A DNA stretch of 64,000 bases from Shigella phage sb2: sequence record PQ666540. One strand, given 5' to 3'. Positions 1 to 692 of this stretch are shown piece by piece (position 1 is the first letter of the stretch; each line of letters begins with the position of its first letter). A program made the position numbers and the translations under genes. The notes under the pieces were generated by a model. The model was not told the origin of the DNA, ran no database searches, and saw only the letters and a list, made by a program, of their open reading frames with translations.

Positions 1-528
1 GCAGGTTCATACACTGATAATAACTTTAATATCAGTTCAACTTATGCAGCAATTGATGGTAACTACAAGTATCAGTATGACAAATATAATGATGTGAATC
101 GTTGGGTTCCATTAGCAGCTGATATTGCTGGTTTATGCGCGAGAACCGATAACGTTTCTCAGACTTGGATGTCTCCAGCTGGTTATAATCGTGGTCAGAT
201 TCTTAACGTTATTAAACTTGCTATTGAAACTCGCCAGGCGCAGCGCGATCGTTTATATCAAGAAGCTATCAACCCAGTAACTGGCACAGGTGGTGATGGT
301 TACGTATTGTATGGTGATAAAACAGCTACTTCTGTTCCTTCTCCATTTGATCGTATTAACGTTCGTCGTCTGTTTAATATGTTGAAAACGAATATCGGAC
401 GTAGTTCAAAATATCGTTTGTTCGAATTAAACAACGCGTTTACTCGTTCATCATTCCGCACAGAAACTGCCCAATACTTACAGGGAATTAAAGCTCTCGG
501 TGGAATTTATGAATATCGTGTAGTTTGA
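1..528 (+). CDS. 18: tail sheath protein gp18, C-terminal part (5' end outside window); ends at in-frame TGA 526-528 but the frame stays open to TAA 682-684
   Basis: Frame 1 open from window start; sheath-like C-terminal sequence (...IKALGGIYEYRVV); followed by genes 19 and 20 in T4 order. Confidence 0.8.
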   Translation, partial: AGSYTDNNFNISSTYAAIDGNYKYQYDKYNDVNRWVPLAADIAGLCARTDNVSQTWMSPAGYNRGQILNVIKLAIETRQAQRDRLYQEAINPVTGTGGDGYVLYGDKTATSVPSPFDRINVRRLFNMLKTNIGRSSKYRLFELNNAFTRSSFRTETAQYLQGIKALGGIYEYRVV

Positions 529-692
529 GATACAACAAATAACACTCCGTCAGTAATTGATAGAAATGAGTTTGTTGCAACATTCTACATCCAACCGGCT
601 AGTAGCATTAACTACATAACCTTGAACTTCGTAGCAACTGCTACAGGTGCAGATTTCGATGAGTTAACTGGTCTTGCAGGTTAATTGATTGT

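Follow-up and report, generated by a model that had tools for sequence, protein, structure and literature searches.

Among described tail sheath proteins, the closest counterpart of the locus reported here is gp18 of phage T4 (NP_049780; PDB 3J2M/3J2N and 9MKB), a protein of 659 residues. About 138 gp18 copies are needed per virion, and the C-terminal domain of the sheath protein (domain IV) maintains subunit connectivity in both states of the sheath (PMC3004832). The gene that we analysed resembles that of T4 in length, in the position of its stop and in its Pfam domains. However, it differs from the T4 gene by two features: a TGA in place of the Cys608 codon and a serine at residue 633, which is otherwise always basic. 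At face value, such a TGA would suggest readthrough, a selenocysteine or a truncated sheath. The evidence presented below rather points to a problem of record quality: with a probability of about 80%, the TGA and two further stops found in gene 34 are base errors in the deposited sequence.

The stretch of DNA that we studied (hereafter the window) is a 64-kb part of Shigella phage sb2 (PQ666540), and all coordinates are given on its own numbering. The window corresponds to the final 64 kb of a T-even (Tequatrovirus) genome of about 165 kb with a pSs-1-like layout. Its left edge lies inside gene 18, the start of which is upstream of the window, and its right edge lies 86 nt past motA, as in the pSs-1 record. 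The nearest records are those of pSs-1, sb3 and sb4, with about 96-97.5% identity. Genes 19 (tail tube) and 20 (portal) follow gene 18 in the window; gene 17 (terminase), which is upstream of gene 18 in all relatives, is outside it. Frame 1 of positions 1-684 corresponds to the 3'-terminal part of gene 18 and remains open for 51 codons past the TGA. This end of the gene is composed as follows:

1..525, plus strand: residues 433-607 of gene 18 (tail sheath), identified by translation, tblastn with pSs-1 gp18 (query residues 433-659), PDB 9mkb/3j2m and Pfam (PF04984, PF17482)
526..528, plus strand: in-frame TGA at the Cys608 codon (TGC in relatives), with a private C>A at base 528, from translation and alignment
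529..681, plus strand: final 51 codons of gene 18, for residues 609-659, all in frame and intact, from translation and conservation
601..603, plus strand: codon of residue 633, AGT (Ser) in the window and AGA, CGT or CGC (Arg) in relatives, from alignment
682..684, plus strand: TAA, true stop of gene 18; T4, sb3, RB3, SsoM113 and F13076 stop at the equal position
693..706, plus strand: GGGGC-UUCG-GCCCC tetraloop hairpin 3' of gene 18, with no T-run, from folding; conserved in the relatives that carry the inserted ORF described below

The preliminary description of this DNA, made from its letters, had reported the TGA, the 51 sense codons that follow it and the TAA, all of which are borne out by translation, and a GC hairpin after the TAA. 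This hairpin is also present, with a 5-bp GGGGC/GCCCC stem, a UUCG loop and a centroid energy of -10.4 kcal/mol. A canonical terminator after gene 18 was rejected, since no T-run follows this genuine hairpin and a scan for terminators called no terminator-like site at 693-706.

The extension translates as DTTNNTPSVIDRNEFVATFYIQPASSINYITLNFVATATGADFDELTGLAG. When the TGA is read through, the translation is identical to residues 433-659 of the gp18 of PDB 9MKB at 226 of 227 positions, which shows that the open frame is not due to chance. This read-through translation matches the Pfam domains PF04984 (3e-23) and PF17482 (Phage_sheath_1C, 7e-24). The latter match covers query residues 112-213, so that the TGA, at query residue 176, splits the domain, and the extension lies within and just after it. 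The frame that leads to the conserved C-terminus is interrupted only once, by the TGA at 526-528. As judged from its sequence, gene 18 is here most likely an ordinary full-length sheath gene of the T4 type, with 659 codons, a cysteine at position 608 and its end at the TAA in 682-684.

The extension had been proposed to be the real C-terminus of gp18 and the TAA its real end, a proposal that orthologues ending at the equivalent of position 525, followed by variable sequence, would have contradicted. Among 120 diverse gp18 homologues (52-85% identity), none ends near residue 607 and all 120 end at most three residues from the end defined by this TAA. Conservation among these homologues is 0.81 over the last 51 residues and 0.78 over the upstream part. 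Furthermore, the 153 nt that follow the TGA differ from those of relatives by 4-11 synonymous codons and only 1-2 nonsynonymous ones, which indicates purifying selection past the stop and no decay. These data bear directly on the idea that the TGA is real and terminating, in which case the phage would make a 607-residue sheath protein deprived of its last 52 residues. Such a protein would not necessarily be inert: a passage of PMC6357053, which cites Poglazov 1999 and Efimov 2002, states that C-terminally truncated recombinant T4 gp18 polymerises in vitro into polysheath-like or 'non-contracted' filaments and that up to 100 C-terminal residues of the FV3 sheath protein are dispensable for tube formation. 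Since truncated gp18 still polymerises, although aberrantly, it should not be overstated that truncation abolishes assembly. Nevertheless, the TGA would cut the conserved Phage_sheath_1C domain, the C-terminal domain IV keeps the subunits connected in both sheath states (PMC3004832), all the homologues have a full C-terminus that is as conserved as the rest of the protein and the sequence past the stop is under purifying selection. A truncated sheath is therefore extremely unlikely.

The nature of the altered codon is equally clear. The T4 protein reads ...YEYRVVCDTTNN...GLAG*, and the TGA falls on the codon of its Cys608. As the preliminary description had suggested doing, we aligned the C-termini of related gp18 proteins: the extension is conserved and the residue that corresponds to the TGA is a cysteine in all five relatives (T4, sb3, RB3, vB_SsoM_113 and F13076), which all have TGC at this codon, more than 100 nt around it being otherwise identical. 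From this alignment, the TGA is to be read as one C>A change at base 528 of a TGC codon. Column 608 contains Cys in 118 and Ala in two of the 120 homologues, never Trp, and belongs to the near-invariant motif VVCDxTNNT. The tryptic peptide that spans this residue is VV[C/W]DTTNNTPSVIDR, with Cys, or Trp if the UGA is read through. Moreover, the change is private to this record: among the 496 phage records that cover the 76-nt stretch centred on the TGA codon, none matches it exactly and the best match is 75/76. TGA, TGG and TGT variants of codon 608 gave no match in IMG/VR, and TGA and TGG variants gave none in JGI metagenome contigs; the TGC control string was found in five IMG/VR contigs.

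Programmed recoding, by which the UGA would encode selenocysteine, be subject to a conserved regulatory readthrough or be a reassigned stop, could be considered, since a UGA aligned exactly with a conserved Cys codon is a hallmark of selenoproteins. In addition, the affected genes are late structural ones, a class that is enriched for recoded stops in recoded phages. However, the relatives that carry TGC have an identical sequence past this codon, which argues against the evolution of a dedicated SECIS element. The local fold of 520-600 (-14.4 kcal/mol, z = -1.37) is unremarkable and contains no SECIS-like or structured readthrough signal 3' of the TGA. The TGA is conserved as a stop in no relative and no orthologue has a UGA. 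A genome-wide reassignment of stops is excluded, the 90 genes examined containing only one in-frame TGA and two in-frame TAA, the latter being a different codon. No suppressor tRNA, nor any other tRNA gene, was found in the 64-kb window, the T-even tRNA cluster lying outside it. To our knowledge, no redox role has been attributed to Cys608. Hence, recoding is hardly conceivable here.

Besides the TGA, gene 18 carries a second private transversion that alters the protein, 75 nt further downstream. It leads to the change R633S, at a residue that is Arg in 103 and Lys in 17 of the 120 homologues, and never Ser. Three strict private transversions are located within 118 nt at the end of gene 18. 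This local cluster was considered as a separate argument and discarded as such, being not significant alone; we therefore relied on the genome-wide test of substitution classes presented below.

The surroundings of this end of gene 18 also deserve description. Between genes 18 and 19 lies an ORF of 205-217 codons (725-1342, plus strand, with a possible TTG start at 689) that is absent from T4, where gene 19 begins about 115 nt after gene 18, and present in pSs-1, RB3, sb3 and others. This inserted ORF has no Pfam hit; it matches phrog_5104 (6e-91), to which no function is assigned there, and is annotated as 'homing endonuclease' in phage ADUt. Its product contains CxxC pairs and an HNH-like DH...N...N stretch. 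Since the T4-type hairpin AGGCCTGTTTCGGCAGGCC recurs right after it (about 1349-1367), the ORF looks like a mobile insertion. In the adjacent end of gene 18 (600-654), the window shows 13 differences from pSs-1 in 55 nt, all synonymous except that at the codon of residue 633, and carries the haplotype of T4 and sb3 rather than that of pSs-1. Such a pattern suggests a boundary of recombination or co-conversion near the insertion. Elsewhere in the window, nrdB (40256-41431) and td (44308-45165) are uninterrupted, with no group I introns and no I-TevI or I-TevIII, and the homing endonuclease genes segD, segE, segG and mobE are missing from the positions that they occupy in T4 (5775-8704, 12435-12486 and 48295-48398). 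Hence, given the absence of these T4 introns and homing endonuclease genes and the presence of the gene 18-19 insertion, the set of mobile elements differs from that of T4. As in pSs-1, the window also harbours two full-length alt paralogues (ADP-ribosyltransferases) in tandem (22908-27020, minus strand), which share 41% identity, whereas T4 has one alt and the remnants alt.-1 and alt.-2.

The mapping of 90 pSs-1 proteins on the window shows that all but three genes are colinear and intact. The three broken ones are gene 18, gene 34 and the orthologue of gene 30.3, the last two with the following lesions:

53226..53228, plus strand: first TAA of gene 34, where relatives have TAC or TAT (Tyr), from protein mapping and alignment
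53250..53252, plus strand: second TAA of gene 34, where relatives have TCA, TCG or TCT (Ser), with C>A at 53251, from protein mapping and alignment
53228..53288, plus strand: 61-nt patch of gene 34 with seven private transversions, from the list of private changes
30097..30100 (about 30099), minus strand: private deletion of 2 nt (GG) that causes a frameshift in the orthologue of gene 30.3; pSs-1, sb3, sb4 and T4 all keep both bases

The ochre codons of gene 34 that had been reported earlier are thus real features of the record, 24 nt apart. The patch that contains them comprises six G>T or C>A changes and one, at 53228, that is either C>A or T>A. All seven alter the protein or create a stop, two of them creating the TAA codons, and a clustering of this kind was obtained in none of 5000 random placements. 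The 96-nt stretch around the patch had no megablast hit (no common 28-nt word) in 50,697 phage records. Since G>T and C>A are mixed on one strand, the patch does not result from one bad read of a single orientation. At all three stops, in gene 18 and twice in gene 34, the change on the coding strand is C>A, or possibly T>A for that at 53228. In uvsW, three private nonsynonymous transversions (F23C, H24L and L26R) are located within 10 nt (12553-12562), forming another patch that resembles errors.

The substitutions private to the window (n = 564) were defined against a panel made of pSs-1, sb3, sb4 and T4, and the expectation in the absence of selection was computed from the codons of the window itself. 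Hoc (hoc, 10330-11745) is only 85% identical to that of pSs-1, and gp37 (gene 37, 56382-59687) carries 76 of 160 private nonsynonymous changes. Since hoc and gene 37 are the usual hypervariable genes for surface and receptor-binding proteins, they were left out of the selection tests. Outside these two genes, the coding effects of the private substitutions are the following:

transitions: 197 synonymous, 26 nonsynonymous, 0 stop
A:T>T:A: 20 synonymous, 8 nonsynonymous, 0 stop
A:T>C:G: 6 synonymous, 3 nonsynonymous, 0 stop
G:C>T:A, observed: 9 synonymous, 26 nonsynonymous, 3 stop
G:C>T:A, expected if unselected: 3.4 synonymous, 30.1 nonsynonymous, 4.6 stop

The first three classes are far more synonymous than random changes would be and have therefore passed through purifying selection. 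The private G:C>T:A changes differ from them in their coding effects (Fisher p = 7e-16 versus transitions and 7e-5 versus A:T-origin transversions); being close to the unselected expectation, they look unselected. Because the G:C>T:A class is intrinsically poor in synonymous sites, we added a sister-branch test, in which the branch of the window is compared with that of pSs-1, with T4 as the outgroup:

transitions: 425 on the window branch, 435 on the pSs-1 branch (p = 0.76)
G:C>T:A, all: 59 on the window branch, 20 on the pSs-1 branch (p = 1.3e-5)
G:C>T:A, nonsynonymous and stop: 44 on the window branch, 11 on the pSs-1 branch (p = 9e-6)

The few private G:C>T:A changes of pSs-1 are also mostly nonsynonymous (2 synonymous, 6 nonsynonymous and 0 stop), so that the argument for errors rests on the excess in number and not on the ratio alone. 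The excess of the window over pSs-1 amounts to 6 synonymous, 30 nonsynonymous and 3 stop changes and fits the proportions expected without selection (9%, 79% and 12%; chi-square p = 0.29). The raw spectrum of the whole window displays no obvious G:C>T:A skew, which appears only after the split by coding effect and the comparison with the sister branch. Private G:C>T:A sites are found in early, middle and late genes, including 20, 67, 23, 51, 28, alt, the DNA ligase gene, 63 (rnlA), nrdA, t and arn, and the sites that were tested are private among 55 records for gp23 and among 256 records for nrdA.

The preliminary description had linked the stops of genes 18 and 34, and this connection stands, as they all belong to the private G:C>T:A class (with the reserve of a possible T>A at 53228). 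In contrast, its reading of these stops as nonsense markers, or as readthrough in late virion genes, is not supported: the layer to which they belong bears no trace of selection and also hits early and middle genes such as nrdA, the DNA ligase gene, rnlA/gene 63 and alt, no relative has the TGA, and two ochres 24 nt apart in a patch of seven changes are unlike a genetic marker. Conditional-lethal genetics of T-even phages has classically targeted genes 18 and 34, and both contain nonsense codons here, which would be consistent with markers deliberately introduced in a laboratory stock. However, classical nonsense markers were obtained mainly through transitions induced by base analogues or hydroxylamine, whereas the three stops result from transversions. 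Furthermore, about 30 more private missense G:C>T:A changes are scattered in unrelated genes, and the backbone is that of a wild pSs-1-like phage and not of a standard laboratory strain. Laboratory markers are thus very unlikely.

A genuine opal allele would be another way to account for the TGA. The UGA would then be present in the phage DNA, and full-length sheath would be produced through readthrough by the near-cognate tRNA-Trp (C608W) or in a host that suppresses UGA. The 51 codons past the TGA are fully intact and in frame, as is to be expected if the mutation is very recent or if the codon is read through. In E. coli, UGA leaks more than the other stop codons, termination at a UGA with a G after it is comparatively weak and K-12 strains are leaky for UGA, so that strict lethality would not follow from a real opal allele. 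However, this allele is found in none of the other sequences searched (496 phage records, IMG/VR and JGI metagenomes), Trp never occurs at the near-invariant position 608, the TGA belongs to the unselected G:C>T:A layer and the 64-kb window provides no tRNA gene. Given the number of sheath copies that a virion requires (PMC3004832), a readthrough of a few per cent would be severely limiting. In addition, leakiness of UGA cannot rescue the two UAA codons of gene 34. A genuine opal allele is therefore improbable. It is slightly more improbable still that A528 is real and that the phage lives on a small full-length fraction made by natural UGA readthrough, with Trp or another residue at position 608; if this was true, a leaky opal allele would exist in nature in a structural gene whose product is needed in stoichiometric amounts. 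More generally, it is unlikely that the phage really translates past this stop codon, and readthrough, selenocysteine and laboratory nonsense markers are all poorly supported.

Errors in the deposited sequence would account for all these lesions together. The record would consist of a natural, well-selected genome over which about 35-40 private G:C>T:A changes, never exposed to selection, form a thin layer. The TGA of gene 18 would be one member of this layer and the TAA codons of gene 34 would belong to the same class. A phage with two ochres in its essential gene 34, with gene 18 interrupted by an opal and with a frameshifted gene would be hard to propagate, which argues for errors in the record rather than lesions of the phage; the two ochres together with R633S at an always-basic sheath residue are likewise hard to square with a propagating phage. 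From the finished sequence rather than from reads, we infer that the layer is most likely of technical origin. It could have arisen through consensus errors in poorly supported stretches or through damage-derived G>T/C>A miscalls. Oxidative damage to DNA while libraries are prepared is documented to cause C>A/G>T artefacts, which were described at low allele fractions (PMC3616734). Their fixation in a consensus would thus require stretches of weak coverage or some other technical cause. The sequence at the end of gene 18 is as first observed, whereas a functional in-frame stop is most probably not a true feature of the phage. Annotators should restore gene 18 as a gene of 659 codons and gene 34 as a full-length gene, or flag the sites as probable errors. 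Moreover, when the private changes of a phage deposit are sorted by mutation class and by coding effect and set against those of a sister genome, an error layer can be spotted quickly and without reads.

As in bacterial selenoprotein genes, the UGA of gene 18 is aligned with a Cys of the homologues; unlike them, gene 18 of the window has no SECIS-like element and no Sec-containing orthologue. It shares with the Qbeta A1 protein and with T4 opal mutants an in-frame UGA followed by an open and meaningful extension. However, in true readthrough systems such as Qbeta A1, the stop is a conserved one and the two products are both functional, whereas the stop found here, which recurs exactly in none of the 496 phage records and as an end in none of the 120 homologues, is private and splits a single conserved domain. 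The layer resembles oxidative 8-oxoG artefacts (Costello et al. 2013, PMC3616734) in its class, its occurrence in both orientations, its unselected coding effect and its restriction to one data set; it differs from these low-fraction artefacts, which are not normally fixed, since its changes are present in the final sequence and are partly clustered.

The related deposits of sb3 (PQ666541) and sb4 (PQ666542) have the same pSs-1-like backbone and an equal record start point, and both carry heavy loads of private unselected transversions, an overlay of the same kind as that of the window and far heavier. In sb4, for instance, the largest class is that of private G:C>T:A changes (14 synonymous, 116 nonsynonymous and 25 stops), and A:T>T:A changes amount to 25, 82 and 17, respectively. 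Many essential genes are annotated in fragments in sb4 or sb3 (uvsW, gp27, gp48, DNA ligase, td, gp37 and motA). Given these heavy overlays and fragmented essential genes, error-laden records are common in the T-even phage group of the window, sb3 and sb4, within which the window, with three stops and one frameshift in 90 genes, is much cleaner than the other two.
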